This document shows positions 16,682 through 62,485 of a DNA stretch of 64,000 nt, piece by piece; the stretch's first letter is position 1; every line of letters starts with the position of its first letter. Source of the DNA: Botryllus schlosseri. Taxonomy: Eukaryota. The stretch spans positions 4,652,001-4,716,000 of the forward strand of contig CM119373.1 in the NCBI GenBank assembly GCA_051294905.1, written 5' to 3'. The notes beneath the pieces were generated by a model, which worked only from the letters and a program-made list of their open reading frames with translations, searched no databases and was not told where the DNA came from. A program made the position numbers and the translations under genes.

Positions 16682-16730
16682 ATGAAAGTGGAAAAGTATC
16701 AGTTGCTAGCTCTGATGCTATATATTACAG
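16682..16730 (+). CDS. Gene B exon 1, signal peptide MKVEKYQLLALMLYIT
   Basis: ATG, hydrophobic core, cag|gtttga donor in phase 1; paralog at 61449. Confidence 0.75.
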
Positions 16731-19700
16731 GTTTGACGGCTGCATATGTTATTGAATGTCGAGCCAGACGGAAAACAGCTAGGGTGTAGCGTACCAGCTG
16801 ATTGCTAGCAGCACGGATCGTGTTCAGCTATTATTGTTTGCGAGCCAACATGGACCACTTTTGTATTTTGTCTTGATTTATACTAGTCGAAGATGTGGAT
16901 TATTGATGTTTTATACGCAATTTACACCTATAGTTATACTGATCATACATTGATAATACGACTAGTGCATCGATGTGAAAACAACCTGAAGTTTGAATTT
17001 GCATAGAGTCCGTGGGCTTTTATATTTGTGAATGAAGATCAAATGACATGAATATTTGCGGTAACATATCATTGCATGAGATGCGCCAGTAATATGAGTG
17101 CGTCAATCGGTGAAATAGTGGACGTGTCTACAAGCTGAGTGGTGTTGTTGAGAACGGGGGCAGTTATTCCGCGTATACTGCTTTATTCATGCAACAGCTC
17201 TGGTATTGTGGTGTTAGTAACCATTGTTTAGGTACATATTACGCTCCTTTGTATTGCACCCGATGTCGTAGACATGGTCATTCGTTATTTGCCGAGATGG
17301 TATTAAAGTGGTATTGGACTCAGCGGCATGCGTTCCTGATCATAGGATATAGGATCTAAGTTACGGTTACAATATTCGGGAATTTAGGAAATCTGAAGAG
17401 CACATTTTTTTCAAAATTTTCAGACTCAGAATACTGGCGTGAAATTCGGAAAAAATAGTGAATTTTACCCTGCTTTGTGGTTGGTTGAATAAAATAAGGT
17501 TCTTTTTTCGGCTCGGCTCCATAAATCCGCACTTTTGTTGAATTCTCCGCTGGTTAACTAAAAAAAATAAAAATAAAAAAGGCCAGCTTTCCGTCGTCGC
17601 TCCCGAAATAGCTGCCTGGACGTCACTTCAGTGCTGATTTACTGTATTTCATTCGATATTTACCCTATATTTAATCAAAATTCTCAAAAAGAGGACATTT
17701 GGGAGTCATCCGAGGAGAAATCCTCTTGAAAGAAGACAAATCCTATGGTGACCCTAGTCTAAGTCAGAACAGTTATAATATTTGCACACATTGTATTTTG
17801 TGATATGGTGGTATGACGACGTCTATAGTTTCATTAAATCTGTGGGTTGCGCTACTTTTCGATTCATACAGCACTGGATATGACGTCTGATAGAATCCAG
17901 ATTAAGTAATTGAGGAGCATACCATATTAAATACAATATTTTGAAAAAATTGAAGTATCATAAGAAAGTTACTGCAACAGCCAAGTTTAGAGCGGAACAA
18001 AAAGACGAATCGAATTATCCTAGCTTAAGTACATAGTACTGCCGTTATGGCTCTGCTGGGGCGATTCGTGCGGTGTTATTTCTCGCAATATCGTTATTGT
18101 GCGACATCGTTGAATGCGAAGCATTCCTTTTTAATTCGATCATCGACCGTGGTGCAGAAGAGCACAGGCGATGAGAAACAAATTATCTGTTTAATGAACA
18201 ACAACAACGCAACATCAACAACTGGAGTATTGGGAAATGATGAACAAGGTCGCCGACTATAGACCACGCTGTAAACCTTGAAACATGAATGACTATATTG
18301 GGAGGGAATCATCATAATTTCCAATCCTACTATAAAGTCAGTAACAGCTCTCCATAAATGATAGCATTATGTTCGAATTTCTCGATATTCCTCATCGATT
18401 ACATTGACTTCGAATAATAACAACCTGCACATATTTCATTCAGGTCATCGTTCATCAAGTGGATGCGAATATCACAAAAAGCTTCACTTGGTAAGCAGGT
18501 TAATAACAAATATTGAATATAATGCCAGATACAATATCATATCGCCCGAGCGCAAAATTTGCAGTGTAGTCTCGTAATTTCCATGGCCCGCTCTTCAATT
18601 ACAATATTCATCGGCACATTTTACAAGTAGGATTGCAGGATCTTTCGGGTGAGAATACACTTGCTTGCGTGAATCCACTTTAGGGGAATCCAATATCCGA
18701 GTGGATGAGTGACGATATCGAGTTGCTGGTATATCAGTCTTCGTCACATTATCCGCCAATAGAAAAGAAATTACGGTGATGTTAAGTAGACAGGACCTTT
18801 AAGGTATGCGAATTCAATTCAAGCATTTGTATAATATATGATGCGCGTTGCGGCTGATCTGTGACGACTTTTGTTATTGCAAATTCCGTTAGACTTTCGT
18901 TTCTGAGTATCAATAGTTAGATCAGCTTTCTCATCTATTTAGATGATCTAATCATTGGTTCTGATAATATCCATATATCAGTACATTGAAGTCTAAGTCT
19001 CAACTGGAATATGTTTTATATGAAACAGACTTCCGCCTCAAGAAAATGTGGCATTATCGCAATGCTAAGGATTAATCCTATTGATTTGGATATTTATTTT
19101 GCCCCTGCCTTCACTTTTTCCCGCGAGTTTCGGAGGTGCGGTAACCGTTATAGTTTGTGTAGCTGGTTAAACATACACAGTCATGAAAGTTTGAAATCTG
19201 TTAAACCTAGTGTCGGATAGTAGTAGTTGTATGTCCGATTCAACTAGATTGACAATAGCAAGATTGTTGGTGCAGTCTGACAAACATTTGGCTACGTGGG
19301 GGAAGCCGTTCGAAAGCAAATTATTAAATTTATGATAAAAGTAATTTAACTCGATATAGTACATTTGGTTCATATTGAAATAGGACTATATATATTGATA
19401 AAGATAAATTGGTATATTCGAAATCACGCAGTCAGTAGCTTATATAGCAGGGGCGGCCGACATACGGCCGGCGGGCCGGATCCAGCCCGCGAAGGGATTT
19501 TGAGTGGCCGGCAGACAGTTTCCGGTCTTGCATGATAATGCGGACCGCAACCACAGTCTACGGCAGACCGTGGCAAAGTGCAATTCTGTTGCGGCCAGCG
19601 AAAGGTTTCTTGAATTTAAAACATAAAACTTGCTTAATGAATGACTAAAACCACTGGCTGTATCAACTGAACAGAAAATTCGTTAACTTTGAAGCCAGTT

Positions 19701-22700
19701 CACTAATATGTCACGATTCCGCTGCCTACTTACCTCGCATGCGTAATACTCAGATTAAAAATATAGGCAATGTGGCAAAGAACGAGTAGTAATTAAAGTC
19801 ACAAGAAATCACACTCTCCATATAGTTGAGTTCAAATCTTCTTTGATGCAATTGTCACCATACGCATTATACGGTATGCATTTCAAATAGTGACGTGATG
19901 CGTTTCCAAATCCGTTATTAGTAAAACAAGTCAATCAGTGCTCGCAATTACCATATGACTCATCATATTTATTACCCATAAACAGGCCGTGTTATTTTTG
20001 GCATTTCAGGAGCCAGATGCCAAAACTGCCAAAAATAAAAATTTGAAAATGCCAAAATTAAGCAATTTTTGGCATATGCCAAAAATAACACGACCTGCCA
20101 AATAGTGTATTTCGTTCATGGTGTTGTGTTAACAGGACCGCGTTACAAGCGAGAAGAGCGTTTGTGAAAGGCAGGTTTCTTAATCTGGGTCCAGCCCACC
20201 CATTAGGGCTGAAAGCATGGTGTCCTAAATGGTGTGGGCAGAGCGAGATTGAACGGCTGACTGCATGTGGTTTACGTCATACTTTCCATTTGTCCGAAGG
20301 CAATTTTACGACCATTTTGACCGGCTAGTCGAGCGCTAAATTTGATAAAACGGGTATCAATGAGAAGCTGCCGCAGTACTGATTATTAAAATATAAATTA
20401 TATTCTGCTCATGAAACTGGAACCCCCAAAATCAACCACGATTTTTGCATTGTGATCGAGGTGAACATTGTGACGCAAGAAACTGACTGGCTATTTCTGA
20501 GCTGCATCGTCTCGTTTTGCCAGACAGTCTTGTTGCGTCAATGTTCTTAAACAAGCTAACCTTCCCAGGACTCTTCCATGCGAGTTGGTAATATTAAAGC
20601 CACCTGAAGTGAAAAAATATCGGTAGACTGAAGGAGAAATGATAGTCGGGCTACTAAATAGAATGTGTTGAGAGACAACACAGGAAACTCCTGGAAAAGG
20701 ATCAGGAAGAAAATTATTTCCGCGACGAGGTCGATGGCACTGGCGGAGTGATCTCTTTTCATGATGTATGGAAGCCGGTTCGGCCTTCCAAAGATTTTGA
20801 AGCTCTGAAAACCTTTTGTGGATGACTGGCAACATTCTTTCCCTCAGCGGCTACTGTTGAAGCCGATATTTCCAAGATTCGCTGGGCGAGAAATGAATTT
20901 AGGAGAAACTTAGCTGACCTGAGTTTGGAAGCACTGCTACAGTGCAAACGATTAAAGTCTATTCAACAGCTGTGACAATCAGCTGTTGAGCGTGTTTGTT
21001 AGGCTTTTCTTTCATTTTTTTGGCTTTTCTTTCATTTTTTTGCTTATTGGCACCGATTCCGATGGATACTGCACATTTTGAGGTTTCGTTTGATATAATT
21101 AACCAATGAAATCGTTAGGTTTATTCTTCTCTTATTGTTTGTTGGCATTGATTATACGTGGATGCTGCGCATTTTGTGGTGTCTTTTGACAAACTAGCCC
21201 AAATAAAGCGTTTTTGTGACTAATTCGAGGCTGAAACTATCTATTTAGAGGACGATGCCAAAACTGCCAAAAATAAAAATCGAAAAATGCCAAAAATAAG
21301 TTATTTTTGGCAGTTTTGGCATATGCCAAAAATAACACGTCCTGCCCATAAAGGATGACCGGGCACGTCAAAAAAGAAAGCATAAAACTGATACTCAAGG
21401 AAGGTTTAGAATACTAAATATTGGTATATACTGGAGTCAGGAGTAAACCCGCCCTTTTAGTTTTTGCCGAGCATGTCGGAAAGATTAAGGAAATTAATCA
21501 AAGTCGGTCTTTTGACAAAAACACGGAACACTCAGTCAAGAGAAGGTGAATTTCAGAAAAACTGCAAGCTTCGATCAACATTTAGACTACTGCTCGGAAG
21601 GCATCGACCAAAACAATAAGCTTTGTACCAACATTGGGATCTAGTCACTACCTTCGAGTCACGAGTCATTTCGAGTCATTGCACATTTTGACTCGAGTCA
21701 AGTCATGTCAATCGGTTTTCGAAGGTGACTCGAGTCAAGTCAAGTCACTCGATTTTTGGAGGGGACTCGAGTCAAGTGCAGTCAAGTCAATTCAAGTCAA
21801 GTCACGAGTCAAGTCAAAATTCAAGTCAAGTTGCCTATTCGTATTATAAGGCATGATTACGTCATTACATTTTGCTAGCTGTCTGAAATACATATTGAGT
21901 GGTCATTGATTTTAAACCGATGAACGAATATAGAGTTGAATAGGGTTGTTCACTAGGGTTGTTCAAAAAAAACTTTTTTTTCCAAATCTCACTCGCCTAC
22001 TGACTAAATCGTCAGGTTGTCCAAGAAAACGATGCACACCAAATTTGACTCAATTCCAACCAGTCAAGGCCGTGCAATCTTGAATTGAAATTTTTAATTT
22101 ATTAAAATAAATTAAAAAAAAAATTTCTCAAATTTTTCTGTCAACCCCATGAAATTGTTGAGCTGTCTTCAAAGACGATGCAAAACAAATTTGAGTCAAT
22201 TCCGACTTGTAGAAGCGGAGCTATTTGAGTTTTTCGTTGATAATCCCCGGATCAAGGATAATCCGGCAAATATCAACGAAAAACGCGAATAACTCCGCTT
22301 CTACTGGTCGGAATTGACTCAAATTTGTTTTGCATTGTCTTTGAAGACAGCTCAACAATTTCATGGGGTTGACAGAAAAATTTGAGAAATTTTTATTTTT
22401 ATTTTTTTTAATAAATTAAAAATTTCAATTCAAGATTGCACGGCCTTGACTGGTTGGAATTGCGTCAAATTTGGTGTGCATCGTTTTCTTGGACAACCTG
22501 ACGATTTAGTCAGTAGGCGAGTGAGATTTGGAAAAAAAAGTTTTTTTTGTACAACCCTAATATACACCTAAGAAGGCGCTGTATCGCTCACATATACGTA
22601 GCCTCAGTTTATAGTTACCAACCAAAATAGGGAATAGAGAAACTAATTGATAAGACGCAATACTCTACCCTTTACTCATTTACATATTGATATGATACAA

Positions 22701-25700
22701 TTCGAGCCTGCACCAAAGGTTGAGGAGTATATAAACTATATTCGAAATCAAAATCAATAAAACAAAAGGCTTGGTTAAGGTAAAAACAGAGAACAGAAAT
22801 AGATAATTTTCTATTATATTACTTTACTGCTCGTTTACAACAACGTAAGCTGTAAGGTTCGATCACTTCGTTTGTGGTCAATTTATTTGTGTAGCCTCAG
22901 CAAAACGCACCATCTCTCCCGAGTTACACCAGCCTTCCGCGAAAAATCCTAACATATGCAAGATACAGTGATTTTCATCGATACTGTTTAATTTATGACT
23001 TGGAAATTAACTCGGGAATTTTCCTTCGAGTCACGAGTCAATCCACATTTCTGATACGCCGAGTCAAGACATGTCAAGTTATGTTAGCAAAGTGACTCGA
23101 GTAAAAGTCAAGTCATGCAAAAAATGTGATTCGAGTCATCCCAACATTGCTTTGTACATCGCATATATACTTTTCAGAGCAGGGGTTCTCGAACTTGGGG
23201 CGTGAAAGCATCTGTAGGAGGCGCGAAGCCGAAGTTTGATGAATTTTTTTTTTCGCGCTCGGCATGATCTATCCCAAGCTTATACTTGTTGCACTGGTTG
23301 CACTGTGTATTGTCTGACTTTTATAATTCAGAATTCTCTCATCAACAGCCATAACCTTTCATGCCACCAGACCATCTATTGGGATTGCTAGCATAGCGGT
23401 TGAACCGATAATATTTTGTGATATCAAGTTAAGGGGGCACGAAATTTGTCACTATAATAAAGGGAGGCGTACCTAAGAAATTTGAGAATCACTGTTTGAG
23501 AGTCTTAATGAAAGAACGTAGATGGGGATTTAAAGAAAGTTAAAATGTATCATGTTTAACATTTTCTCGAATCACGAGGGCAAATGTATATTTTGTTAAT
23601 TAACCGTCACTTTCTCATTACTTTAAATCAACACATTCACTGAGCAACATTTATTAAAAATGTAGTGAAGAAATATAATTAAAACACGCTGGAGAATACA
23701 CGCTGGGGGCGTGTCTAGAAAAGTTTGAAACCGCGGCTATAGGTTTTTGTCACTTTTTTCCGTGATAAGCTTTACATCCTAAAAGGCCTTTCCATTTTCC
23801 CTTCAGTATCATGCCTTGCCTTAAGCCGGAATATATCGAATAAAGATTTAAAGTGAATTATGGGCTTATTGTAATAATTAACGGCAGAATGGACACAAAT
23901 AATAGCGATTGTTCGTTACTCTTTAGTTCTACGTTTTCTTTCTTTCCGACATGCAACCAGAGTTCAAAGAACTTTTTCACCACTTTGATCGACCACGGAT
24001 GTCTCACATTCACTTCAAGAGTTATTGAAGTAGCCTACAGAACGTCAATATATTCATTGAATACTGTTTTGGTCTGTATGCTTTAATCTTGAAGTTTACT
24101 TTAAATACGATTAATCCTTGTATAAGTGGATAAATGCTCGATGTATATATAGATTCAGGATTCAGACCCGCCAATTATTTCATTTTCCGATATCCGGCCC
24201 GCCGGCTGGAGTAGTTTCCCTCCCCTGTCATATGGTATTTTATTTAAAGAGCTTTTTGAAGGTACAGAACTTCAATATACAATTGAATAGTATATTCCCA
24301 TTGCAATGAACCCGAATATTTTCGACTGACACTCGTCAGGGGTAATCGTCACCAAAGCAACTACTAGTAGAGAATGGGAACGAACATTGTAATACAGACT
24401 TGGACAACTAGAAAATTGTCAGCTTTTCCAAGTTAGATTAGAATTAGAATTAGAGCTACAGAAGCTGTTCCAAATTAGATTAGAATTAGAATAAGAGTTA
24501 CATAATTTTTCCGAATTAGATTAGAATTAGAATTAGGGCTACAGAGATTTTTCCAAATAAGATTAGAATTAGAATTGTAGCTACGCATTTTTTTCCAAAT
24601 TTGATTAAAATTAGAATTAGAATTAATTCGCTAAAATTTTGAATTTGACTGAAATTGTGAATGAGAAATACATACAGCAAAAATCGAGTTCGGTTCTCAT
24701 CCAATTACAATGCATTCTCATACGCATGAGAACGGTTAACGTATGTAAGTGTCGTGATGACTCGAGTCATGACTGGACTCGAGTCACTTTTCCGAATGAC
24801 TTGACATGACTCGAGTCACTTGGCCAAAATGACTGGACTTGACTCGGCGTTTCAAAAATGCATATTCACTCGTGACTCGGAGCAAAATTTACGAGTAAAT
24901 TTTAAATCATCAAATAATTTGTGTCGATCAAAATCGCGGTATCTTTCATATATTCGAATTGTTCTCGATACGCTGGTGTGACCTGTGAGAGTGACCAATT
25001 TCATTCGTTCAATGATTTCCCGTTTTACTGAGCCTCCATTGTCCTATCACAAATATATTAACCCCAAACGACGTGATTGGAGCTTACAGCATACATTTTC
25101 GGTAAAGTAAGAAAGCAATAAAATAGCAAACTATCCATCTCTGTTCTGAGGACTATGGTCATTGGTGCCCGGTGCTCAACTTAACGCCTAATCAAACCTC
25201 TTGTATGATTTAAATTGAATCTGAAACAATCATCATCTTTTCGCTTGATGTAGTTGAGGGCATGGAATTGAACAATCTGTTAACTATCTCTCTTTCTTCG
25301 CTGCTGTGCTGTTTGTGATCGAAACTAGAATGTTGTTCGCAGACTACCTGCTACTATGCGAGCATGGCTATTATTCGTCACAATAACTACTATGATTGTA
25401 CTTGTGCAGTGTAAGTAATGCGATGGAGGCTTGGCACTGGATTTTCCGGCGCGAGAAGGATATTATCGTTAACTCGCTGCAAAATGCCGCGAACAAAGAG
25501 GCATTTTCAGGAAAAGAAAAAATAGATTAGAACTAAAATTATAGTATAGAAACATTTCACAAATCAGATTAGAATTGGAATTGGAGCATATGAATAATTC
25601 ACAAGTTAGATTAGAATTAGATTACTGGCATTTTGTTCTGATTCAGAGAAATTAGATAATATAAATATCTAGTTGTCCAAGTCTGCATTGTATATCAACA

Positions 25701-28700
25701 ATCGTATCACAAAATATGACGTCACCAGCATGAAATGAGATCTCAAATAAGAAAGCGTTCAGTGTACTATTTTAAGATGGTACACGAACTCCTTTTGTAA
25801 ACGAAGCATGGGCTGATGTATTTTAATGAAGGTCGACTTCAAGGCACTCAGATAAAAGTGTGAGCGGCTCCTCCCGATGACGCGAAAACTGTCATCTCGA
25901 TAGTTTCTCGCACAGTGGGATTACCCAATATAGATGCTTGCCAATGGCAAGATTTATGGCCTTCGAACGCTCAGCCTCAAGCTTCAGCGAATAAGTAAAG
26001 GTTGGGCTTTAACCGAGGGTGATGCACGTGCTCTGATAAATCTAGAGACATGCTCTGATGCTGGCTAATGTGTTCCTGCGTTCCAATTCTCTACTATAGT
26101 TGCTGATGTTTACTATTGACGAGTGTCAGCCGAAAATAATCGGGTTCATTTCAATATGAATATACTATTCTATCGTATAGTAATTTATGAAGACCGTATC
26201 ATGATGAGTGATCCCATTTCCAAAACTTCACTACCAATGATTTATGTTATGCCACTAAGCCTCATAGCGTACGCGTACACTTTTTCAGAGTCGCGTTGTT
26301 ATTCTACGTCTGCATAACTGACGGAATGTTCCGGCGAATGCTCGTTATGTTGACCGAATGGTTATACACTACAGATGCCAATAGCCTGGAACAACTGACG
26401 GAATTTCTTCGGGGTCAGAATGGTTCAATTACTTCCATTGCAACTAATGTTGTGAAGGATGAGCTGTCAACTGCAGCAGCGACTACTGCCATGGTTTCGA
26501 CAACGATAGATTACAAGTTGACAGCACCGACTTCGCAGAGCACAAATGCATCAGGTAACTGAAATACGTCATAGCGAAGTAATCGGAAAGCATAAATGAG
26601 TGTTGGTATTTAGGATTGAATCTCAACATTACCATGTTCATTCCAATTTTCATGCCCATGGGTAGTCGAAGTTTAGAGCGGTGAGAATCAAAAGCAAGTA
26701 AACGTACTCCCGAATTCAAAACGCCCCACAAGTAGAGAGGAAGATATTTTTAAATCACACCAAAACTACTACAGGAGTAGCAGAATAAAAATGCGTTGCT
26801 TCTGGAATTCAATACAAATAAGCAGATTGAAGTCGTAGATGGAGACGAGACTTGTCAGACTTTCGTTACTCGATTGCTGGTGAAAGGTAACATATTTACT
26901 ATGGAGGGTATGAGCTCGAGGTTCACGTTCGCTTTCATTATAACATCTTTGGTTGAAATTCTTTGCATTTGAGCTTCGAACTTCGAATCACTCTGAGCAT
27001 GGAACAGGCAGCATGTAAATGTGAACGCTGAACAATAGGGTTACCATATTTTGGAAGTATGAAAAGAGTACACTTTTCAAAATTTCGAGACTTGAAAAAC
27101 CCGAAATAAATCCTCGGAAATTGGTAAATTTTTCCCACTTCGTAGTCGGTTGAATGCAAAATTAGAACAATAGGTTAACTTTCAGCTTCAACTCCCGAAG
27201 TTCAGTTTTTCTTTCGCATTATTGGCTGGTTGATTAAGAAATAAATTCAAAAAAGGTCAACCTTCCGGCTCAGCTCCGGAAATACCCGCCGGAGCTTTAC
27301 TTCAGTGCTCTCAACTAGGAAGACAAAATTTCAAAAAAGAAGACATTTGGGAGTCCTCCGAGGATACTTTCAAAAAAGTAAAAAGAGGACAAATCCTCTT
27401 AAAAGAGGACGTATGGTAACCCTACTAAACGAGCATGCACCGTGCCAATCTCAAAAATCTTACTTGCTTTGTTACAAAAGTTTGCTCGAAACATTTTGCT
27501 TTCCGTTTGTGAATATCTCGCGACTCTCTGTTGTGAACTTGACCCGCAGTCACACAACACCAAGAACGAAATACACTATGCACAGGCCGTGTTATTTTTG
27601 GCATATGCCAAAACTGCCAAAAATAACTTATTTTTGGCATTTTTCGATTTTTATTTTTGGCAGTTTTGGCATCGTCATCTAGATAGATAGTTTCAGCCTC
27701 GAATTAGTCACAAAAACGCTTTATTTGGGCTAGTTTTTCAAAAGACACCACAAAATGTGCAGCATCCACGTATAATCAGTGCCAACAAACAATAAGAAGA
27801 AAAAACCTAACGATTTCATAGGTTAATAATATCAAACGAAACCACAAAATGTGCAGTATCCATCCGACTCGGTGCCAATAAGCAAAAAAAAAGAAAGAAA
27901 AGTCTAACAAACACGCTCAACAGCTGATTGTTACAGGTGTTGAATAGACTTAAATCGTTAGCACTGTAACAGTGCTTCCAAACTCTGGTCAGCTAAGTTT
28001 CTCCTAAATTCATTTCTCGCCCAGCGAATCTTGGAAATATCGGCTTCAACAGTAGCCATTGAAGGAAAGAATGTTGCCAGTCATCCACAAAAGGTTTTCA
28101 GAGCTTCAAAATCTTTGGAGGGCCAAACCGGCTTCCATGCATCATGAAAAGAGATCATTTCGCCAGTGCCATCGATCTCATCCCGGAAAGAATTTTCTTC
28201 CCGATCCTTTTCCAGGAGTTTCCTGTGTTGTCTCTCAACACATTCTATTTAGTAGCCCGACTATCATTTCTCCTTCAGTCTACCGATATATTTTCGGAGG
28301 ACTTTTGTCACTTCAGGTGGCTTTAATATTATTTGTTGCGTCACAATGTTCAACTCGATCACAATGCAAAAATCGTGGTTGATTTTGGGGGTTCCAGCTC
28401 CATAAGCAGAATATAATTTATATTTTAATAATCAGTACTGCGGCAGCTTCTCATTGATACCCGTTTTGTCAAATTTAGTGCTCGACAAGCCGGTCAAAAA
28501 TGGTCGTAAAATCGCTTTTGGACAAATGGAAAGTATGACGTAAACCAAATGCAGTCAGCCGTTCAATCACGCTGTGCCCACACCATTTAGGACACCATGC
28601 TTTCACCCCTAATGGGTGGGCTGGACCTAGATTAAGAAACCTGCCTTTCACAAACGCTCTTCTCGCTTGTAACGCGGTCCAGTTAACACAACACCATGAA

Positions 28701-37700: not shown

Positions 37701-38587
37701 ATTTCAAACTACTTTCCAATTTTCGTAATCCAAAGGCGTGAAAAAGTAGTTCCACCAAACAAACTATCAAGGATTAGTCTATTATTCTTAATATATAACA
37801 ATTTCAGTTAGTAATACAAAAGTTACTTAAGCTCTTCGCAAAACCAGAAGGACGCCGTTACTGACCACTTATATGTTTTTGAATTTACCCAGTCTAAATG
37901 AACAATCCTTCTGCCACTATCATTTTGATTACAGCATGCGCCATTCCTCGTTTCACCTTTAAGGATGCATACCACCTCGATTACATCCGCTACAGCGGCA
38001 CTGTACCGGATATGGCATCATTTAGTGTATGCTTCTGGATTCGATCTGCCTTATCGTCGTCAGAACAACAGGCCATCGTCAGCTATTGTGTACCTTGTGA
38101 CTCCGACTGCAATACCTTTATGATCTGGTTGCAAAACAAGAACATCAAAGTGTCTTTCAAATCAGCAAGCCATAGTAGCAATTGTGTAGTCGGGAACGGC
38201 AATATTTACCACTATCGTACCCATATGTGCGTCGTTAAATCAGGAACCTCATTGTTTTTGTACACTAACGCATCGTGTCATAAGTGCAAGAATAAAGCTC
38301 CAGCAACATTGAACGGTGGTGGCGTCTTAATCTTGGGTCAGAATTTGGATGGCGGAGAAGGCGAATCTGCACCGGAACCGGAGCATGAAGAGCAAGGATT
38401 TCGCGGTGATATCGGAGGATTTCAACTGTGGAATAAATCTTTCAGCGATGATGAAGTTACTGATGTATATCAGTCTGGGGAATGTGCTTGTCCGGGCGGC
38501 ACGGGACTGATTGTTTCGTTGAATAAGTCAAACTCAGTAGCAAAAAGGAATGCATCAGTCGCCAATTGGAGCGCTACTTGCCCGTGA
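16682..38587 (+). CDS. Gene B: predicted secreted 312-aa protein with signal peptide, Ser/Thr-rich stalk and C-terminal pentraxin domain
   Basis: join(16682-16730,18444-18490,18639-18648,26375-26554,37935-38587) = 939 nt, all GT-AG, in frame to TGA. The first four exons have paralogs in genes C and/or D. Confidence 0.75.
17362..17756. mobile_element. hAT-type MITE (TAGGG family) in gene B intron 1
   Basis: tacggttac ... ggtgacccta; TSD atctaagt/gtctaagt; not seen in the gene D paralogous intron. Confidence 0.8.
18444..18490 (+). CDS. Gene B exon 2 (GHRSSSGCEYHKKLHL)
   Basis: ttcattcag acceptor, ttg|gtaagc donor; paralogs at 45851 and 62279. Confidence 0.8.
18639..18648 (+). CDS. Gene B exon 3, 10-nt micro-exon
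   Basis: ttgcag|GATCTTTCGG|gtgaga; bridges phase 0 to phase 1; present in three paralogs. Confidence 0.75.
19983..21344 (+). mobile_element. hAT-type element with (tttggca) arrays and a transposase remnant
   Basis: TIRs caggccgtgttatttttggca / tgccaaaaataacacgtcctg; perfect TSD cccataaa; inverted sister copy at 27583-28832. Confidence 0.9.
20555..20975 (+). pseudogene. Decayed C-terminal part of a hAT-like transposase
   Basis: Manual translation across stops and frameshifts: LPRTLPCELV...IECVERQHRKLL...FHDVWK...LKTFCG*LATFFPSAATVEADISKIRWARNEFRRNLADLSLEALLQCKRL, resembling a hAT dimerization region. Confidence 0.65.
21629..23149. mobile_element. hAT-type MITE with (caagt/ctcgagt) arrays
   Basis: Ends caacattgggat / atcccaacattg; perfect TSD ctttgtac; uninterrupted copy at 31976-32956. 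Confidence 0.9.
21942..22558. mobile_element. Near-perfect ~600-bp foldback MITE with 3-bp AAT TSD (PIF/Harbinger-like)
   Basis: 21955-~22250 is the reverse complement of ~22260-22558; termini AGGG...CCCT; the empty site in the sister element near 32290 implies TSD aat. Confidence 0.85.
23180..23494. mobile_element. Old hAT-type MITE carried inside its host element (also at 47424-47732)
   Basis: caggggttctcgaact / tttgagaatcactg; TSD tttcagag/tttgagag. Confidence 0.75.
24308..24352 (-). ncRNA. Minimal type-I hammerhead ribozyme motif, intact core
   Basis: Reverse complement reads accc CTGACGA g-tgtcagt-c GAAA atat TC gggt, with a 4-bp stem I. Confidence 0.8.
24395..25685. mobile_element. 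MITE with (agaatt)n arrays inserted in the PLE pLTR; contains a reversed fragment of the (caagt) family at ~24755-25200
   Basis: 17-bp perfect TIRs cagacttggacaactag / ctagttgtccaagtctg; flanks cattgtaata/cattgtata. Confidence 0.85.
26102..26146 (+). ncRNA. Degenerate hammerhead motif (C3 changed to U, stem I disrupted)
   Basis: acta TTGACGA gtgtcagcc GAAA ataa TC gggtt. Confidence 0.6.
26375..26554 (+). CDS. Gene B exon 4 (DANSLEQLTEFLRGQNG plus Ser/Thr-rich stalk)
   Basis: ctacag acceptor, cag|gtaact donor, 180 nt, phase 1-1; N-terminal part homologous to the exon at 58380. Confidence 0.8.
27036..27424. mobile_element. hAT-type MITE (TAGGGTTACCATA family)
   Basis: TIRs tagggttaccata / tatggtaacccta; TSD ctgaacaa/ctaaacga. 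Confidence 0.85.
27583..28832 (-). mobile_element. hAT-type element, inverted sister of 19983-21344
   Basis: TIRs caggccgtgttatttttggca / tgccaaaaataacacggcctg; perfect TSD actatgca. Confidence 0.9.
30456..33802. mobile_element. hAT-type element, level 4, with internal ~200-bp tandem units (~30880-31560)
   Basis: 14-bp TIRs cagtggcggctcgt / acgagccgccactg; perfect TSD gatactag. Confidence 0.9.
31976..32956. mobile_element. hAT-type MITE with (caagt) arrays, level 5
   Basis: TIRs cagtgttgggat / atcccaacactg; perfect TSD tgtcacag. Confidence 0.9.
35914..36844. mobile_element. Intact hAT-type MITE with (gttcac/gttcgc) arrays
   Basis: 16-bp TIRs tagggatggtgtgaac / gttcacaccatcccta; perfect TSD gtaattgc. 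Confidence 0.9.
37935..38587 (+). CDS. Gene B terminal exon, pentraxin domain
   Basis: ttacag acceptor (phase 1); motifs SFSVCFWIRS, AIVSY, HMC, GGGVLILGQNLD, FRGDIGGFQLW; paralog of 3032-3702. Confidence 0.88.
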
Positions 38588-38785
38588 AATTGTTCTACAG
38601 CTGCAATCGATTGTGGACAAGCCGTCGATTAACGAGTATACCTTAACGTTAACATATAACTCAAGTAATGCAAAATTTAGTTGTGCTCTTTTAAAAACTA
38701 GAAGGACACCGTTACTGACCACATATGTTTTTGAATTCATTCAGTCGAAATGAACAATCCTGTGCCATTATCATTTCCATTACAG

Positions 38786-39076
38786 CATGTGCCATCCTTC
38801 GTTTCACCTTTAATGATGCATACCACCTTGATCACATCCGTTACAGAGGCACCGTACCGGATATGGTGTCATTTGGTGTATGCTTCTGGATTCGATCAAA
38901 TTCATCGTCGTCGGAACAACAGGCCATCGTCAGCTATTGTGTACCTGGTAACCACGCCTGCAATACCTTTGTGATCTGGGGTTACAAAACATTCACATCC
39001 AAGTGTCTTTCAAATCGGGGTTACTGTCGCAAAATGAAATGCATCAGTCGCCGATTGGAGCGCCACTTGCCCGTGA
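38786..39076 (+). pseudogene. Decayed tandem duplicate of the gene B pentraxin exon
   Basis: Closely matches 37935-38165, has a 2-nt insertion near 38980, then jumps to the equivalent of ~38540 (about 370 nt deleted); acceptor and flanks are also duplicated (~38640-39135). Confidence 0.85.
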
Positions 39077-43063: not shown

Positions 43064-46000
43064 ATGATGGATGGAACAATTGAAGGACTCTGCAAATTTG
43101 CAGCTTTAATATTTTGCTCCACAGGTATGTATTTTGTGTTAGCAAAGGTATATTTGAGTGATTTGAAGCAGCCAGGTATTCAGGTTGTTAAGTAAAATCT
43201 ACGTTTATACGGGATAGTTTAGAGCCCTCATATTCGTAATAATGGTCAGGATGCGTGTGTTGATGACGAAACGCGGTTGCATGCACTTCCTTGCACAATG
43301 ATTTAACGGGGCAACCGGCTCTAATATGATGCGGTCTCAAATTTGAGATAAAATCAGGAATAAACTTTTGGCTGCAGCTGAGTCCGGGATGTCGCATCAT
43401 GTCGATGCGAAGTCAGTGACGCATCACATATTGTCCACGCACTACTAAAAGAAGTGGGACTACAAGATGTCGGTGCTCCAGTAATTTCGCAATCGCAACT
43501 AGCCGCCACAACAGCATGCAGATTTACTTTCAAGCTAGAGTAGAATGGCGTGTTTCGGAAAAAGGATATAGCTGCAGTTCCATTGCGATGGCTTTCTGAA
43601 GAAAATGGCGTCGCCCAAAATGCATTCCCGATTTTATCTTTAATTCGAGTTCACGTGATATTCAGAGTGCAGTGACCTTTGAACTGTCATGTACCTTCAC
43701 AGAATTAGGAAGTCTAGCATTCGAATAAATGAGCAACTGTGACTAGGCCTACATATTCAAATTTATTCCAGAAGCTTTTCGGCTGATACTGATCAAGGGA
43801 TACCGTCACCAATAATGCGAGCAATCAAATAACTATGCTCAACAACAATTATTATCGCTAACTATGACGTCATAAGGAGTTAATGGAAAGTTCGAAAAAC
43901 GAGAGTACAGTAGCGCAGGACCGGAGATAGCGAAACAGAACAAGTTAATCCGCAATTTTCAAATGATACACAAATTTTTTCTGTTGGCATAGAATAGGTT
44001 GACTCATAGTGATGATGGTGGACTCAAGAACAGACAAATGAAATAAATGGCGACCATTGTTCAATATACAGAACGTTGCCCCATGATTATTAGCAGCCCA
44101 CGTATGATTTTCTAGTAAATGTATGCGGATGCGGATAGAAGGCTTTTGATCCATGGCCTGGTTGTGTTCGAGAACAAGCAGATTGTTTTGCTGCGATTTC
44201 CAGATAAAAGTTTTGACAGACGGTTGGATGGTTTCTTTGATAAGGCACTGCAACCGTTTGAAAGTTCTCCCTGCGTACCGACAATGGCAGTGGCTCCTGA
44301 ATTCATCAATGACGTTACTTTGTCGTAAAACGGGGAGAACAGCCTTTCGAGTTGCAGCAAACATTGGTATCGTGGTGAAAATAACATTGGCTTCCACCGC
44401 TGGATAACAGCGGTAGACTGCTGAAGTTGAATGTTTCTCAAATCGATCCAAGGAAGATGGATGTACAGTTGTACACATCTCTACTTTCACGAGAAACTTC
44501 TTCGGAAGTTTCGTTAGGTTTCGTATCATACGACTGACGTAACTTATTATTCATTGTCCGCTTGATGACATCCATCTGGGTATCCGTTGTCAGTGAAAAT
44601 TGTGCGGATATACTCAAGTTTACAATTCAAGATATACTCATAATAAGTCGTCAACGCCCGGTGGACCATGCAAGTTGCCGATAAATTGATTTTACGACTT
44701 TGTGGACTAAAAGAGTTCCATCGGAGGTAATGAACTGCCAATGTGGGCCTCCTGTAAGCAGAGGTTAGGAATTGACAGTTCCTTTTCCCCACCAGATTCC
44801 AGAACGTCAAGGAATGCCAGGCGGTTAGTAATTTGAATGCTCGCAAATCGCAATATGGCTGACGCCATCCCCTGATGAGTGTCAGACGACGAGCTTCGGG
44901 AAAAATATGTATATATTATTCAAATGTGTCATAAAGTTCTGTACGACAAAGCGTCTCAATATGTCAGTCGCAATGCCATTAATGACAAAAAAATGCAATT
45001 TCTCGTGTTGAACATTGATTCGATATGGATGAAGGCGACGATGCTGAGCCACATCATTTTAGATGCCGCCATACTGTTTACCTAGGACGTGCTATCTGAC
45101 CAGCTACATGAAAACGCTTCACAAACAGGGTGGCACTGACTAGAGTTGTAAATTGACTTGATGAGCAATTTTTTGATGACTCGTGGTCATTCACATTGTG
45201 TATTGACTCAATTTTCCTTTCCGTTGACGATAAATTTAGTGAAACACTATACCTGCGCAGTTCTGTTGGTGATTAGCATAGAGCAGGGCTGTAATGACCC
45301 GACTCGAGTCAGACTCGAGTCACGATTTACTGATGACTCGACTTGACTCCGGTCATTTTCCCAAAATACGGAAATGAATCAACTCGACTCGAGAAAATGT
45401 GTGTATTGACTCGACTTGGACTCGAGACTCAGACGGCCAAGAGCGACGTTTCATTATAATTTCGAAGAGTAGTAAAGTATAACCACCCTATTGGGAGTTC
45501 GTCTATTGGTAAAGGTACTTGAAAATGCCACCAGAAACTATCATAAGTGAGGAAAATTAGTAGCCTATATTATAATTGTGAATCCTTCGATATCAACAAA
45601 CATACTTATAACTGTGGGTTTAACAAGACATTGTCTGGAAACGGAGCAGTCAACACAACTCGAACCTCTGCTCGCTGACTTGGACTCGGACTTGACTCCT
45701 TGGCGAATTGAAAATGACTTGACTGGACTCGATTCAAAACTAAAAAAAAGTGAAATTGACTTGTGACTCGGAGCCTTGTGACTTGGTTACAACCCTGGTA
45801 CAGAGTACATCATCATGACAAGCTTGATTTGTGACTTCTTTATTTCACAGGTCAGATCGTTATATCAGAAGACCACAAGTATCGCAAAACATTCCACATT
45901 GTACGTATGTTGATTGATGCCGATTGAAAAATCATATACATTCTCAAAGCATGCTGCAAATTTATTAACAAATTTCATTCACCATATTACACTGTCTATT

Positions 46001-49000
46001 TACAACAATGAACAACAACATTGGCTATTTTATTTCCGCTCTAGGATCATTCGGGTGAGAAAAGTTTTGTTTGAAAACTTTCAGAGCAATGTAAGTACAT
46101 TGAACGTTGCGATATTGTTCTTGAACTCGGCCAATATCTTTGGAATCCGCATTGAAAAGAGATTTCCAGCATTCGGAGCTTGGGCCGGATCCTACCCGCT
46201 GGAAGGTTCTATCCGGCCCACGATGCAATGCAGATTAGAAGAAGAAATGGTAGTATTTTCGGCACATCAATATCAAAGCTAAGATTTTTGTTAGGAAATG
46301 CTTACTGGTAAATAACCCCTCCACATATAGCAAACGTCGAAAATATTCAACTGGACCTAAATGACGTAACAAGCATCCTGTGGCAATGTTGCATTCTTAA
46401 CCTTGTTATCATTTGTAAAATGTCTCTGACATAGACGCCAAATTGATGGAAATAGATTAAATATTGCATATTCCTGTATTCTTAGAAAAATGGGCCACAG
46501 GATTGCTATTCGGAGGCACAACGCCAAGGCACAAACCGCACACTAAGTACGGGACTGTGTTCAACAAAATATAAAAATATCCTTATGTTCGTATTCTTGC
46601 ATTAGTCCTGACTAGATAGGTCCGAGCCCTAAAAAGTAATTCGGACGAATTCGATCTATTAAATTCGCGATAGGTTTTATAGCAGGCCTGGGCAAAGTAC
46701 GGCCCGCGAAGCTATTATGTGCGGCCCGCGTGAGGTTGCTTGGAATTCAAAACATAAAACTTGCTTTTTGAATGAGTAAAACCATAGGCTGTATCGAATG
46801 AACAGGCAATTCGTTTACTTTGAAGCCTGTTCATTATTATGCCACGATTACGCTGCCTACGTACCTGGCATGTGTAATCCAGATTTATAATAAAAACAAT
46901 GTGGCAAAGTATGAGTAGCAATTGAAGTCACAAGAAATCACTCTTTCCGTATAATTTAATTCAAACCTTCCTTGTTGACATTGTCACGTTACGCATTACG
47001 GTATGTGTTTCAATTTGTGACGTGATATGTTTCCAAATCCCTAATTCGTGAAGCAAGTCAATCAGTGCTCGCGATTACTATATGACTCATCATATCTATC
47101 ACCCATAAAGGATAAACGGGCATGCCTAAAAAAGAAAGCCGAAAACTGAAATTCAAAGATGGTTTAGGTTAAGAAATTAGAGCACTAAATATTCGCATAA
47201 TGGAGTCGTGGGTCAAGATATCCTTTCAGTTTTTGTCGATCATGTCGCCGACATTAAGGATTTTAATTAAAGTCAGTCTTATGACAAAGGTACCAAACAG
47301 TCGGTCAGGGCTGGAGAAGTTAAAAAAAAATGCAAGCAACATAAAGGCCATTTAAACTGCATACTGCTCGAATGGCAGCGACCAATAAAATATGCTTTGT
47401 ACTATTGCATATACATTTTAGTGCAGTGGTTCTCGAACTGGGATACGTAAAAGCATCAGAAGAGTGACGCGAAGCCGAAGTTAATTGAAATTTTTTTTCG
47501 CGCGATGTGCGATATACAGCCAGATTATAGTTGTTGCTCTGTGTATTGTCCGACTCCGATATTTCACAATTCTATAATCAACAGCTATGATTTTCCATGC
47601 CATCAAACTATCCGTTGGGATTGCTAGCATTCTGGTTGCACTTTTTATCAATTTGTGATAGCATGATAAGTGGGCGCGAAATTATTCACTATCATAAAGG
47701 GAGATGTGCCTAAAAAAGTTTGAGAACCGCTGTTTTAGAGTCTTAATAGAAGAACGTGGATATATGTTTAAAGATACCTAAAAGGTTTTATGTTTAACAT
47801 TGTTTGGAATCATGACAGCTAATAGATATTTTTTTAATTAACCGTCACTTTTTCATTACCTAATATCCACACACTGAGCAGCATTTATTAACAATGTAAT
47901 TTACAAATAAAATTAAAATACGTTGGAGGCTATAGCTATTTTTTTCACTCGGTCTGCCAACGTATTTATTTTTCTCATTTGGCGCGCGGAGGAAAATAAT
48001 TGCCCACCCCTGGTTTATACACTGTAAAAAATAACCGTGGGTTTTGGGGTGGAATAGGAGTGGATAGGAATTATCCACCGTAACGTAGGGGTGTACCTTT
48101 TTGCTCCACCCCGTTTTAGAGTGAAATAGGCGTGGATTGTTGCTCCTACCCCTGCATTACGGTGGATGACATCCTGCCACCCTGGATTAAGCATGGTACG
48201 GCGACCCCACCGCTGATCAATTGAGGAAACAAATATGTTTCCGCTGTGATCATTCCAATCACCTGTGGTGTATAGGCTATGTACGCGCGAGATGCTTGCA
48301 CGGCGTTGATGTCGCGAGATTGAATGCATATGTGCTCAAAGTCTCTGCTGGTGCAAATCAACATATCGGACGGCCGATCTGACAGACATATCATTTATCG
48401 AGAGAGATTCAGTTATTCAGTTTCGTCTGCACCATCGAGGTGCTTTTGGCGACGGAGATGCGACACTAGTCATCTATAGTCAGCACCCCCGCTTTTTTTC
48501 TCCTCCATGCTATCCGTGGATGCTGAGCGTCTAGCAGGATCATCATCATCATCATTGGTTTATTAGCAATTTTATCAGTTCAATACACCACAAAAATGCG
48601 ATACAATGAAAAGACAGGAAGATGTCGAAGCGACAAGGAGTAGTCTATGGAATCTGACACCCACCTTGGCCTAGGCGATGTAAAGAGGAGGCATGCACAC
48701 TAAATGAAGGTAAAGAAGATAGTATAGAAAAAGACTGCGACAAGAAATAGGGCGGCATGTCATGGGAAGCGAGATCGATAGGTCAGTCGTGGTCCGGTAA
48801 TCTTGAGGATGGACTGAGGATAGCGGCGGATACCAGTTTTCGAGTCTTTGGTCTCACACGGCCGGGGATCGAACCCACGACCTACCGATCAAGTTGCCGG
48901 ACGCATAACCATTACGCTATCTTGCTCGGTAAACAGCGGGAGAGCGGGATTGATAGAATATTCATCGGTCAGCCGTGCAAATCAGCACCGTTAAAGAGGA

Positions 49001-58000: not shown

Positions 58001-58468
58001 CACGGGATGGTATTGGATATTGATCAAACAATGCAAACACGAAATTTGAAATCAAAGATCAAGACCCACCTTTATCTGAAGTAATTGTGCCAATTTGGAC
58101 TTAGCATGTGGTTTATTTCCGTGAACGTTTCACTTTAACTATTGATTCGAGGGTGGAAGAGGGTAAGGCTGTCTTATTCTTCGTAAAAAGTACTGATCCT
58201 GCTCGGATCCGACTCCGGCAGTATCAGAAAAAAGTGTGTTCACGCCATTGATTCATGTGCCAGAATGACGGATACATGACTTCACCTTCAACAACGCGAA
58301 TCAAGATATTTGTGATGGAAAGATATCGACCCCTTCGTTGCGATCCCCATACCTTTATATTTTTGCTATATAACTGCAGACAAAAGCAGCCTTCAACAAC
58401 TTGAGGCATTTTCGGAAAGTCAGAACGGCATTCCTTTCGCTGAATTGGCTCTATTTTTTGAGATTTGA
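43064..58468 (+). CDS. Gene C: divergent paralog; predicted 69-aa product without pentraxin domain, possibly a pseudogene
   Basis: join(43064-43124,45851-45900,46045-46054,58380-58468) gives MMDGTIEGLCKFAALIFCST-GQIVISEDHKYRKTFHI-DHS-DKSSLQQLEAFSESQNGIPFAELALFFEI*; same exon phases as gene B, all GT-AG. Confidence 0.6.
43766..43808 (-). ncRNA. Degenerate hammerhead motif in the PLE 3' pLTR
   Basis: Reverse complement reads atccc TTGATCA g-tatcagc-c GAAA agct TC tgga; two core substitutions. Confidence 0.55.
44858..44902 (+). ncRNA. Degenerate hammerhead motif in the inverted pLTR
   Basis: tccc CTGATGA g-tgtcaga-c GACG agct TC ggga; GAAA changed to GACG; stem I tccc/ggga intact. Confidence 0.6.
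45284..45797. mobile_element. hAT-type MITE with (gactc/gactt) arrays
   Basis: cagggctgtaa / ttacaaccctg; TSD gcatagag/gtacagag. Confidence 0.8.
46045..46054 (+). CDS. Gene C 10-nt micro-exon
   Basis: tatttccgctctag|GATCATTCGG|gtgaga. Confidence 0.75.
46683..48012. mobile_element. hAT-type MITE containing the older MITE 47424-47732
   Basis: caggcctgggcaa / ttgcccacccctg; TSD ttttatag vs gtttata[insertion]g. Confidence 0.8.
48470..48930 (-). mobile_element. tRNA-derived SINE interrupted by a LINE 3' fragment
   Basis: Minus strand A box tagcgtaatgg and B box ggttcgatccc, then accaaagac...ggtatccgccgctatcct|gctagacgctcagcat resuming below 48540. Confidence 0.75.
48540..48820 (-). mobile_element. 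Short LINE-like 3' fragment ending aataaa-(tga)n
   Basis: Minus strand ends aataaaccaatgatgatgatgatg; flanked by duplicated atcct. Confidence 0.55.
50131..51454 (+). pseudogene. Truncated ORF2: RT C-terminal half, thumb and CCHC zinc knuckle
   Basis: DDLTCFL...FERATGQKLNAEK, ILG, LTWVGKLTILNSLASSQ, KRGGVAMPD, CKFC-x8-H-x4-C; no internal stops. Confidence 0.9.
50131..51723 (+). mobile_element. Young 5'-truncated L1/Tx1-type non-LTR retrotransposon
   Basis: 16-bp TSD ggagcagcgatgattt (50115-50130 and 51724-51739); poly(A) tail; uninterrupted ORF2 fragment. Confidence 0.92.
53310..54179. mobile_element. hAT-type MITE
   Basis: 16-bp TIRs cagtggtcgggaacct / aggttcccgaccactg; perfect TSD ctatatag. 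Confidence 0.9.
54559..54970. mobile_element. hAT-type MITE with long imperfect TIRs
   Basis: caggggtggccaaccttttcagcca / tggccgaaaaggctggtcgcccctg; TSD ctctatag/aactatag. Confidence 0.8.
55989..56220 (-). repeat. One end of the (caagt) MITE with a 64-69-bp unit triplicated
   Basis: tacatctt(a/g)cttcgaaaaggcaacttgacttg...ctcgagtca three times, followed by TIR atcccaacactg. Confidence 0.8.
56850..56947. repeat. 26-bp minisatellite, ~3.7 copies, subterminal in the CACTG element
   Basis: Unit ggtt(a/g/t)gaccagtctaccctgtggcgt. Confidence 0.85.
57014..57832. mobile_element. Decayed copy of the (gttcac) MITE
   Basis: tatggattgtgtgaac / gttcgcacaatcctta; collinear with 35914-36844. Confidence 0.75.
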
Positions 58469-59055: not shown

Positions 59056-59580
59056 CTATGTACAGTGTCGAGTACTCCCTTCAGTTATCACACTACACCA
59101 AAATCTCATTTTACAGCTATGTAGCTATAGCTTAGTTCTATAGTTGTGTAAGCTGCTTTGATACACTACTAAATGTACTTTGGGCGTTACTAAATGTAGT
59201 GCTTGTGCTTTGACGTCATCTGTTTTGGTTTAACTGCTAATATCGCATAATTTTGGCTTGATCTTCACATGAAACATATGATTCCCGTTTACAAGGCTCT
59301 TCGTGTTAACGATTGCGTGTTTAGCGATATTGCTTCAGAATTAGAAAAATACGGTATGCAAACGCTTGAAGACACAGAGGTAGATTCACCAAAGTTGTAG
59401 AAAAAGAGAACTTCACTTACGCAAGATCATTTCATCAATCTGCACTAGTTGTGTCAACATTTTGGAATTTGTCATTTCACTTTGCCCGATTTTAGTATTT
59501 GTAATATGTTATAATAAAATATAATTTCGGAATGATGGTTGCTATTAGAAAATCATGACATAAAACATTGTCTCTTATAC

Positions 59581-61038: not shown

Positions 61039-61448
61039 TCTTATATACGATTACATACATTATATACTACTATGCTCTTGGTGGTTATAAAAACCATTTC
61101 ATGGCAGGTTAATGCAACCTGTGAACACTCGAATGACGAGTGCTATTATTCGTAAACGTCATGAGGCACTTTGCCAAAATGATTGATGCATCTACATCAC
61201 ACGTTCATCCACTTCAATCACTTGGAAGTGTTGCCTATCGATAAGGAAATTACATGAGCGTGGAAATCATTACAATCGACTACTTTAGTGATTCGAGCCC
61301 CGTGTTTGCGCATGACTTATATGACTATACTATGGTATACGCTTACCTCATGGCAGGTGATACTAATACTAGTAAGTAGTGGCTTAGTTATCGGAGGCTT
61401 CATCGCTAAGCGTGATAAATTAAATAGCAATACATCGAAAGTCTTGGG

Positions 61449-62485
61449 ATGAAAGTGGATACGTATCAGCTCCTAGCTCTGATGCTATTTGTGGCAGGTT
61501 TGATGGTTACATATGTTTTTGAATGTCATACGATATAAGCATAAAACTCATTACCGCTATAGATGGAAACAACAAGGCTGTAGCGTATACCAGTATCAGT
61601 GTGCCAGCTGATTGCTAGCCAGCACGGATGATGTTCAAACATTGTTTTTCGCAAGCCGACGTGGTCGACTTTTACGATCTCAACTATCCTTGCCGTGCTT
61701 TTCGTTGTTTTAAATATAAGAAATAATAAGGTTTTAACTAGATTTTATAACATTCTTTGGACCTTCGAAAACGCGCCTTGGGAGATCACGCGATATATTA
61801 CCACTGTGAATCGATATCAAAACGTAAAGTTCCTAATTTATAATGGTCGTAGATGTGGATTATCAGAGTTTTTATACGCAATTAAGAGCTATTAATATAT
61901 TGATCATAGATTTATAATCGATAACTGCACCGATGTAAAAACGGCCATGATATTTCTAACGACTGGAGTACACTTGAACCTTACTGCATAACTGAAGTTT
62001 GAATTTGCATATAGTCCGTGAGATATTATATTTGTGAATAAAGGTGAAATGACATGACTATTAGCGGTAACATATTATTGAAATCCGCCAGTCAAGTAAG
62101 TGCGTCAATCGATGAAATAGTGGACGTGTCTACAAGCTGAGAGGTATTGTTTAGAACGGGGGCCATATTTCCGCATACAATGATTCGTTCATGCAACAGC
62201 CCTGTTGCATTATTCACACGCATCGGATATTGTGATATGGTGATATGACGACTTTTAGAAATTCAGAGTTTCATTCAGGTCATCGTTTCTCAAAGGGATG
62301 CGAATATCAAAGAAAGCTTAACTTGGTAAGCAGGTTAATTGCAAATATTGAATTTAATTTAAGATCCAATATCACTCTCCCGATCACAAAAGCTTCAAGA
62401 AACTTGTATTTTCCATTGCCCGTTCTTCATTTACAAAACTCGGCAGATACATTTGACATGTATTTCCTGTTGCAGGATCTTTCGG
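61449..62485 (+). CDS. Gene D, first three coding exons; continues beyond the window
   Basis: join(61449-61497,62279-62325,62476-62485) gives MKVDTYQLLALMLFVA-GHRFSKGCEYQRKLNL-DLS; splice sites conserved with gene B. Confidence 0.75.

Follow-up and report, generated by a model that had tools for sequence, protein, structure and literature searches.

A probable 10-nt phase-bridging coding micro-exon shared by tandem pentraxin-like genes of the ascidian Botryllus schlosseri

Very short coding exons of a length not divisible by three (non-3n) are known from human genes. The 4-nt exon of MPC1 and the micro-exons of TNNI1, KSR1, TMEM237 and MUSK are shorter than 12 nt, non-3n, conserved and required for the reading frame, and a premature termination codon arises when they are skipped; the five human non-3n micro-exons below 10 nt for which tests are described are constitutive (PMC9929638). 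About 81% of human exons of up to 51 nt are reported to be constitutive; micro-exons of the constitutive kind are marked by strong splice sites together with short introns, whereas conserved flanks mark the alternative kind (PMC4317164). Among plant coding micro-exons of 1–15 nt, about half are non-3n; they are usually included, often unannotated, and annotation that misses them yields frameshifted gene models (PMC8831610). A further group consists of the regulated neural micro-exons, which depend on SRRM3/4, RBFOX or PTBP1, and the Bak1 micro-exon, which is linked to nonsense-mediated decay (NMD). As reported (PMC4317164, PMC9929638), neural micro-exons mostly preserve the frame (Bak1 acts by inclusion) and have conserved intronic flanks. 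Here we describe a 10-nt element present in three copies within a 64,000-nt stretch of Botryllus schlosseri DNA (assembly GCA_051294905.1, contig CM119373.1; C3:4652001-4716000 in genome coordinates; hereafter, the window) and in further copies throughout an array of pentraxin-like genes.

By the genomic tests applied, the element belongs with the constitutive non-3n coding micro-exons. Like the human cases cited above, it is shorter than 12 nt, non-3n, conserved and required for the frame, and its loss would produce a premature stop. Unlike those cases, it occurs in more than 20 paralogues of one tandem family, where its inclusion is deduced from genomic sequence, and its flanking introns are not conserved, whereas those of MPC1 are. 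It differs from the plant micro-exons in residing in an animal gene family. With the neural micro-exons and that of Bak1 it shares extreme shortness and a possible link to NMD, but its flanks drift and the corresponding regulatory motifs are absent. A literature search returned no description of this 10-nt exon or of this pentraxin expansion. We consider the 10 nt very probably a real coding micro-exon bridging phase 0 to phase 1 and, with a probability of roughly 0.7, the constitutive third exon of a gene type with five exons that belongs to a tandem ascidian pentraxin family, a judgement in which both splicing into the message and constant inclusion are read from the genome.

In the window, the 10-nt sequence GATCTTTCGG, preceded by ag and followed by gtgaga, begins at 18639 (gene B) and 62476 (gene D), and GATCATTCGG, in the same setting, begins at 46045 (gene C), as an earlier note on this DNA had reported. 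A scan of the window allowing up to two mismatches returned these 3 matches, against a mean of 0.01 in 100 shuffled sequences. The window contains the 18-mer AGGATCWTTCGGGTGAGA three times only, which places the 10-nt cores at 18639, 46045 and 62476, and the 3 matches to AGGATCNTTCGGGTGAG across the 495.5-Mb genome are all window copies. The distance of about 145–150 nt from exon 2 given in the note agrees with the measured length of intron 2, which is 148 nt in B, 144 nt in C and 150 nt in D. Its observation that the flanks of gene C have diverged around a preserved micro-exon was also borne out. The micro-exons of B and C are identical at 9 of 10 bases, whereas 51% of the columns of intron 2 are identical (mean 46%, maximum 52%, in 100 random pairs) and the first 100 nt of intron 3 are 53% identical. 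B and D, by contrast, are recent copies whose introns are also alike (60–80% identical per column) and thus do not constitute independent evidence; with B/C introns at random level, the comparison of B/D with C is the informative one within the window.

All three gene models lie on the plus strand. Gene B begins with exon 1 (16682..16730), the 49 coding nucleotides of which comprise a start codon and a hydrophobic, signal-peptide-like stretch up to a phase-1 donor (gtttga), and are 84% identical to exon 1 of gene D. Exon 2 (18444..18490; 47 nt, phase 1 to 0) has homologues of 41, 44, 47 or 50 nt in paralogues and is followed by the micro-exon (18639..18648; phase 0 to 1), which encodes D-L-S plus one base. 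Exon 4 (26375..26554; 180 nt, phase 1-1) encodes a conserved N-terminal segment followed by a Thr/Ser-rich linker, and exon 5 (37935..38587; phase-1 acceptor) encodes the whole pentraxin domain and the stop codon, with a match to Pfam PF00354 (E 4.9e-11) and further matches in PDB sequences and in fold. The five exons (49 + 47 + 10 + 180 + 653) sum to exactly 939 nt, or 312 aa, so the claim that a phase 0-to-1 bridge yields a 939-nt open reading frame (ORF) in gene B is correct; without the micro-exon, the frame ends after 39 aa. A second 10-nt AG..GT element at 18794-18803, identical to the micro-exon at 7 of 10 positions, was considered as a duplicated or mutually exclusive micro-exon and rejected, as it carries an in-frame stop and is absent from gene D. 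Its alignment score was matched by 2 of 300 shuffles, and the resemblance is probably due to chance.

Gene D is the cleanest example among the three window copies. Exon 1 (61449..61497; 49 nt), exon 2 (62279..62325; 47 nt) and the micro-exon (62476..62485; 10 nt) lie within the window, and exon 4 and the pentraxin exon lie just beyond it (L010:1360-1539 and L010:2914-3677), forming an ORF of 1050 nt and 349 aa. Within the 3.0-kb interval between exons 2 and 4, the micro-exon is the sole open 3n+1 candidate (1/1) of 4–219 nt bounded by YAG and GTRAG sites. The corresponding interval of gene B contains 7 open 3n+1 candidates, and none of the other 6 is common with D. Four complete gene models of the family have uninterrupted ORFs of 311–349 aa.

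Gene C retains exon 1 (43067..43124; 58 nt, phase-1 donor), which is homologous to the exon-1 regions of three upstream paralogues, exon 2 (45851..45900; 50 nt, phase 1 to 0) and the micro-exon (46045..46054; D-H-S plus one base). Its exon 4 is a truncated remnant (58380..58428) broken off after approximately 50 nt, at about 58428, and its product ends at 68 aa; no pentraxin exon was found between genes C and D. Gene C is a 3'-truncated fragment, not a complete gene. Consequently, of the three paralogous genes described in the note, the three micro-exon copies stand, and C as a whole gene does not.

The micro-exon recurs well beyond the window. We examined 914 kb of family loci, consisting of the window and 850 kb fetched around and beyond it, and divided into a 544-kb block and another 370 kb. 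The genome-wide pattern YAGGAT-N6-GGTGAG has 54 matches, 11 of which, including the 3 window copies from which the pattern was derived, fall in the 0.66 Mb of the pentraxin cluster, or 0.13% of the genome. For comparison, 1 of the 38 matches to a 9-nt version and 0 of the 31 matches to an 11-nt version are in the cluster. In the 544-kb block, 12 of 25 elements of 5–16 nt having the form YAG-GAY..-GTRAG are 10 nt long. In the other 370 kb, the figure is 10 of 15, 2 of which (C3:5446316 and C3:5552958) lie within pentraxin exons and were rejected as micro-exons. A search with an exon-4 profile listed 28 hits, 21 of them at E<=0.01 (the profile was built from 10 of these); 19 of the 21 have an upstream 10-nt candidate starting with GA, and 3 of the 19 candidates start with Glu, beyond the reach of the Asp pattern. 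The two exceptions are gene B, whose weak acceptor was filtered out, and a 9-nt pseudogene copy. In total, 23 copies of 10 nt were identified. This number leaves out the two hits within pentraxin exons and the 9-nt copy, as well as a copy at C3:4547830 that is inverted and has a decayed donor. The sole 9-nt copy sits in a gene whose exon 4 contains an in-frame stop.

The pentraxin domains of the genes bearing the 23 copies are as little as about 30% identical. Throughout this range, the micro-exon encodes D or E, then mostly I or L, then mostly S, T or N; its inner bases drift, and its length and phase (0 to 1) are constant. The order micro-exon, exon 4, pentraxin exon recurs gene after gene, within a layout of signal exon, exon 2, 10-nt micro-exon, Thr-rich linker exon and pentraxin exon. 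In all 14 copies for which it was delimited, exon 2 measures 41, 44, 47 or 50 nt, and together with the micro-exon it forms a frame-neutral unit of 51, 54, 57 or 60 nt. Exon 4 is phase 1-1, and all 18 pentraxin exons inspected have a phase-1 acceptor. The other reading frames of exon 2 were rejected, since stops interrupt frame 0 in 4 and frame 2 in 5 of the 14 copies, as opposed to none in frame 1, a difference that is partly due to the way copies were selected.

A reading in which the 10 nt are unused, with exon 2 and the micro-exon skipped together or another bridge employed, and the motif an inherited intronic element, is very unlikely. Exon 1 does join exon 4 in frame (293 aa in B), RNA reads from four runs aligned to gene B do not show the exon, and protein database searches brought up no entry that carries the joined segment. 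Against this stand the fixed 10-nt length between canonical sites in 23 copies whose inner sequence and flanks drift, the 3-nt steps in which alone exon 2 varies, and the location of the 9-nt copy in a broken gene.

If the exon is constitutive, its conservation needs no regulation to be explained, since any transcript containing exon 2 requires it, and a change of length would disrupt the frame, which accounts for the constancy of length and phase. The frame-neutral unit of exon 2 and micro-exon is cut by a phase-0 intron 10 nt before its end and is flanked by the signal exon on one side and the linker exon on the other, both of phase 1. Within a short conserved N-terminal segment, the micro-exon would supply the central residues D/E-(I/L)-(S/T/N). 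It would be included in nearly all transcripts by means of a consensus GTRAG donor, the short upstream intron present in most copies may be spliced out first, and skipped molecules would be errors cleared by NMD.

Splice sites are consistent with this reading. The acceptor is YAG and the donor GTRAG in 23 of 23 copies (the donor having been a search requirement), and GTRAG occurs in 5 of 13 correctly bounded exon-4 donors, a count from which g5598 was excluded because its exon-4 boundary was mis-set. Intron 2 measures 90–169 nt in 9 of 14 copies. Apart from the acceptor of gene B, the copies share strong sites and, in most cases, a short flanking intron with the constitutive micro-exons of PMC4317164. 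The flanks are not more conserved than other intron sequence in the B/D and B/C comparisons, which are between paralogues only; for instance, the flanks of the B and D micro-exons are 60–80% identical per column, versus 72–74% in their other introns. Neural micro-exons of the SRRM3/4 type have UGC just upstream, those of the RBFOX type have UGCAUG downstream, and their length is usually a multiple of three. Among the 23 copies, TGC is present at -25..-5 in 1 and TGCATG downstream in 1, so that with their 10-nt length the copies do not resemble either type.

The earlier note had suggested that the exon could act as an on/off splicing switch. A splicing factor would set inclusion, and skipping followed by NMD would turn pentraxins off in some cells or states. 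In all 14 copies tested, skipping creates a stop inside exon 4, 108–165 nt before its end, which under the 50–55-nt rule would qualify the transcript for NMD. The exon is also old and fixed at a non-3n length, 18 of 23 copies have a YCAY word in the 60 nt upstream, and Bak1 offers a known case of NMD regulated by way of a micro-exon, there by inclusion (cited in PMC9929638). However, chance alone would place an early stop in most shifted frames of 40 codons (an estimated ~85%), and a frameshift upon skipping is a property of every non-3n exon. YCAY is expected in an estimated ~60% of sequences of 60 AT-rich bases, and the copies are related. In addition, the flanks are not conserved, the donors are strong, and no skipping joint is among the 15 of 581 joints displayed from the RNA alignment described below. 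The peptides produced by skipping are not conserved; a functional short peptide from skipping was rejected, as the shifted peptides are unrelated between subfamilies. The testable genomic features fit constitutive micro-exons, and we regard the switch as improbable. The same holds for its extension to a shared gate, by which one factor, or per-cell chance inclusion, would pick through skipping and NMD which of the more than 20 pentraxins, as members of an invertebrate pattern-recognition repertoire, are made. Were this so, differences in acceptor strength between copies (gene B) and the attachment of phase-compatible orphan 5' modules (gene C onto D) would adjust or broaden what is produced. 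Gating of an invertebrate set of immune lectins by splicing would be surprising.

Several observations weigh against constitutive inclusion. Intron 2 is long (361–2056 nt) in 5 of 14 copies, and no such micro-exon was found for at least 8 pentraxin exons of the 544-kb block. The searches demanded a GTRAG donor, and distant exons 2 were chosen as open phase 1-to-0 frames; both the length regularity of exon 2 and the constitutive profile are therefore partly circular. Since the copies are related, the counts are not independent, and the motif tests rely on vertebrate motifs. The acceptor of gene B itself (18624-18638) is weak or decayed when compared with that of D, as substitutions and a deletion of 4 nt have erased its pyrimidine tract. 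Between B and D, the 5' halves (dS 0.20) have a dN/dS of about 1.07 over 95 codons, so that at least one of the two halves may be free of selection; another 5'-half pair has a dN/dS of 0.29 (74 codons). RNA reads from 4 of 24 listed runs (approximately 6% and 13% of the reads for two raw runs) were aligned to window positions 16401-36400, that is, to gene B only. No read or contig was seen on exon 2 or the micro-exon of gene B; three runs had a depth of 0 over the bin 18402-19068 and the fourth a depth of 0.11, in a shallow sample and for exons of 10–49 nt. None of the 15 of 581 joints displayed touches an exon of gene B, a result that neither shows nor excludes inclusion.

These features of gene B also bear on the possibility that the exon is constitutive in the family while the window copies are mis-spliced or silent, B using the upstream AG or skipping the exon, and C being a dead fragment. 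The deletion and substitutions that erased the pyrimidine tract of B also created an extra AG 8 nt upstream, the use of which would give an 18-nt out-of-frame exon. The low dS and near-neutral dN/dS of the 5' halves differ from the values for the B/D pentraxin exons (dS 1.26, dN/dS 0.30), no reads fell on exons 1–3 of B in the four shallow runs, and C is truncated. On the other side, the ORF of B is intact over 939 nt, the RNA alignment is shallow, and a branch-point-like TTTAC approximately 16 nt before the normal AG may place the upstream AG too close for use. Mis-splicing of the window copies is a tentative possibility that we rather doubt, and it is compatible with the constitutive reading for the family as a whole.

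By these distances, the array is mosaic. The pentraxin exon of B is closer to a paralogue at C3:4395255, about 295 kb upstream (dS 0.76), than to that of D, and gene B would combine a young 5' half shared with D (16682-26554) with an old pentraxin exon (37935-38587); its 5' half may be decaying. This structure could also be taken to suggest that 5' modules are used combinatorially, orphan sets of exons 1–3, such as that of gene C, being spliced onto exon 4 and the pentraxin exon of the next gene (D) to give alternative N-termini. All modules have identical phases, exons 1–3 of C are open with canonical sites, and B resembles a mosaic of young and old parts. Yet the broken exon 4 of C, with its acceptor intact, stands between these exons and gene D, and unequal crossing-over in tandem arrays usually leaves orphan halves and mosaics as debris. 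Combinatorial use therefore appears highly improbable.

The family is best described as predicted secreted pentraxin-domain proteins with a putative lectin-like role, expanded in tandem. The last exon of gene B matches Pfam PF00354 with 43.1 bits against a cut-off of 25. Among PDB sequences it best matches neuronal pentraxins, PTX3 and C-reactive protein (CRP), with an E-value of 1.3e-18 for NPTX1 in a profile search, and its predicted structure (pLDDT 84) aligns with a zebrafish short pentraxin (TM 0.77) and human CRP (TM 0.76). By Pfam, PDB sequence and fold, the pentraxin domain is thus common to this family and CRP, SAP, PTX3 and the neuronal pentraxins. A strict definition of CRP calls for two of three properties, namely a cyclic oligomer, Ca-dependent phosphocholine binding and cross-reactivity, and the calcium ligands of CRP are Asp60, Asn61, Glu138, Gln139, Asp140, Glu147 and Gln150 (PMC6503050). 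In an alignment with human CRP, gene B keeps Asn61, Asp140 and Gln150, replaces Glu138 with Asn and Gln139 with Leu, aligns a Cys with Asp60, and has a gap beside Glu147. As the calcium ligands of the strict definition are only partly kept in this alignment, the name CRP should not be applied to these proteins, although they have the fold of pentraxins.

Genome-wide, the pentraxin exon of gene B has 103 matches, which are not copy numbers, with a dense cluster on C3 at about 4.07 to 5.85 Mb. Pentraxins have been noted in Ciona and Didemnum (PMC5465252). A HMMER protein search returned 127 hits, the best single-domain hit being 39% identical. Among ten of these proteins that were looked up, two are named, as CRP-like or neuronal-pentraxin-like models of Styela clava, one of which is 27% identical to the protein of this family. 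The S. clava 'C-reactive protein-like' proteins XP_039271740.1 and XP_039271742.1 carry, as here, an N-terminal extension and a Thr-rich linker before the domain. The segment joining exon 2, micro-exon and exon 4 was not seen by eye in 21 of the 127 hits. No spliced full-length relative was found with the P0001 query (61 candidates), only one exon-only protein was found with a 15-sequence profile, and an exon-4 profile had no match among 8000 longer candidate proteins. Two S. clava RefSeq isoforms from one CRP-like locus (P0129, P0131) differ by three N-terminal residues, possibly reflecting a 9-nt micro-exon or a shifted splice site in a distant relative; homology is not implied.

For annotation, the result would mean that more than 20 secreted pentraxin-like ascidian genes can be modelled in frame only with the 10-nt exon. 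Gene predictors would plausibly overlook it, as the note had anticipated and as the plant literature would suggest (PMC8831610). The 23 natural variants, among which intron 2 ranges between 90 nt and 2 kb and one acceptor has decayed, form a ready series for studying how a 10-nt exon is recognised.

Some members and fragments of the array depart from this layout. Gene A has an intact pentraxin exon (window 3034-3702) and was rejected as a member of the micro-exon type; a Cys-containing segment approximately 16 kb upstream, which gene A shares with two paralogues, replaces the micro-exon module in its subfamily. Two inverted orphan modules consisting of exon 2 and micro-exon (L005, C3:4605866, and L022, C3:4547830, both on the minus strand) have no intact exon 4 or pentraxin exon on the same strand. 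In one paralogue, exon 2 (C3:4550931-4550977) has a GC donor instead of GT, and purifying selection acts on the rest of its 5' half (dN/dS 0.29). Window positions 38764-39073 contain a partial tandem duplicate of the gene B pentraxin exon with an internal deletion. The introns following the micro-exon in C (46711-47928) and B (19580-23694) have repeat-like segments in common that are 72–83% identical and arranged in one order, with later insertions in B only. Intron 3 of gene C also contains a 5'-truncated LINE-like element with a poly-A tail (window 50093-51600), the RVT_1 and zf-RVT matches of which are weak and below cut-offs.

A search of sequencing runs with the gene B pentraxin exon listed no RNA set as carrying it and six contig sets with shares of 0.05-0.18. 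The reads aligned to 16401-36400 are dominated by repeat-derived reads. Intron 4 of gene B contains a young interspersed repeat of about 2.1 kb (29298-30455 and 33802-34762) split by a 3.3-kb insertion. Its first exon has 534 candidates in the genome, 40 of which were scored and are 93–100% identical. RNA of this repeat family has 5' ends near 30225-30230, with template-switch adaptor in the loose ends, and AATAAA is present at 34382. A GT..AG joint from 30333 to 34192 is supported by 12,010 reads in run X13 and 220 in run X9; the reads differ from the window copy, so that other copies must account for at least part of them. Inspection by eye showed no long ORF, and the repeat family gives rise to a highly expressed, spliced and apparently non-coding mobile-element transcript.

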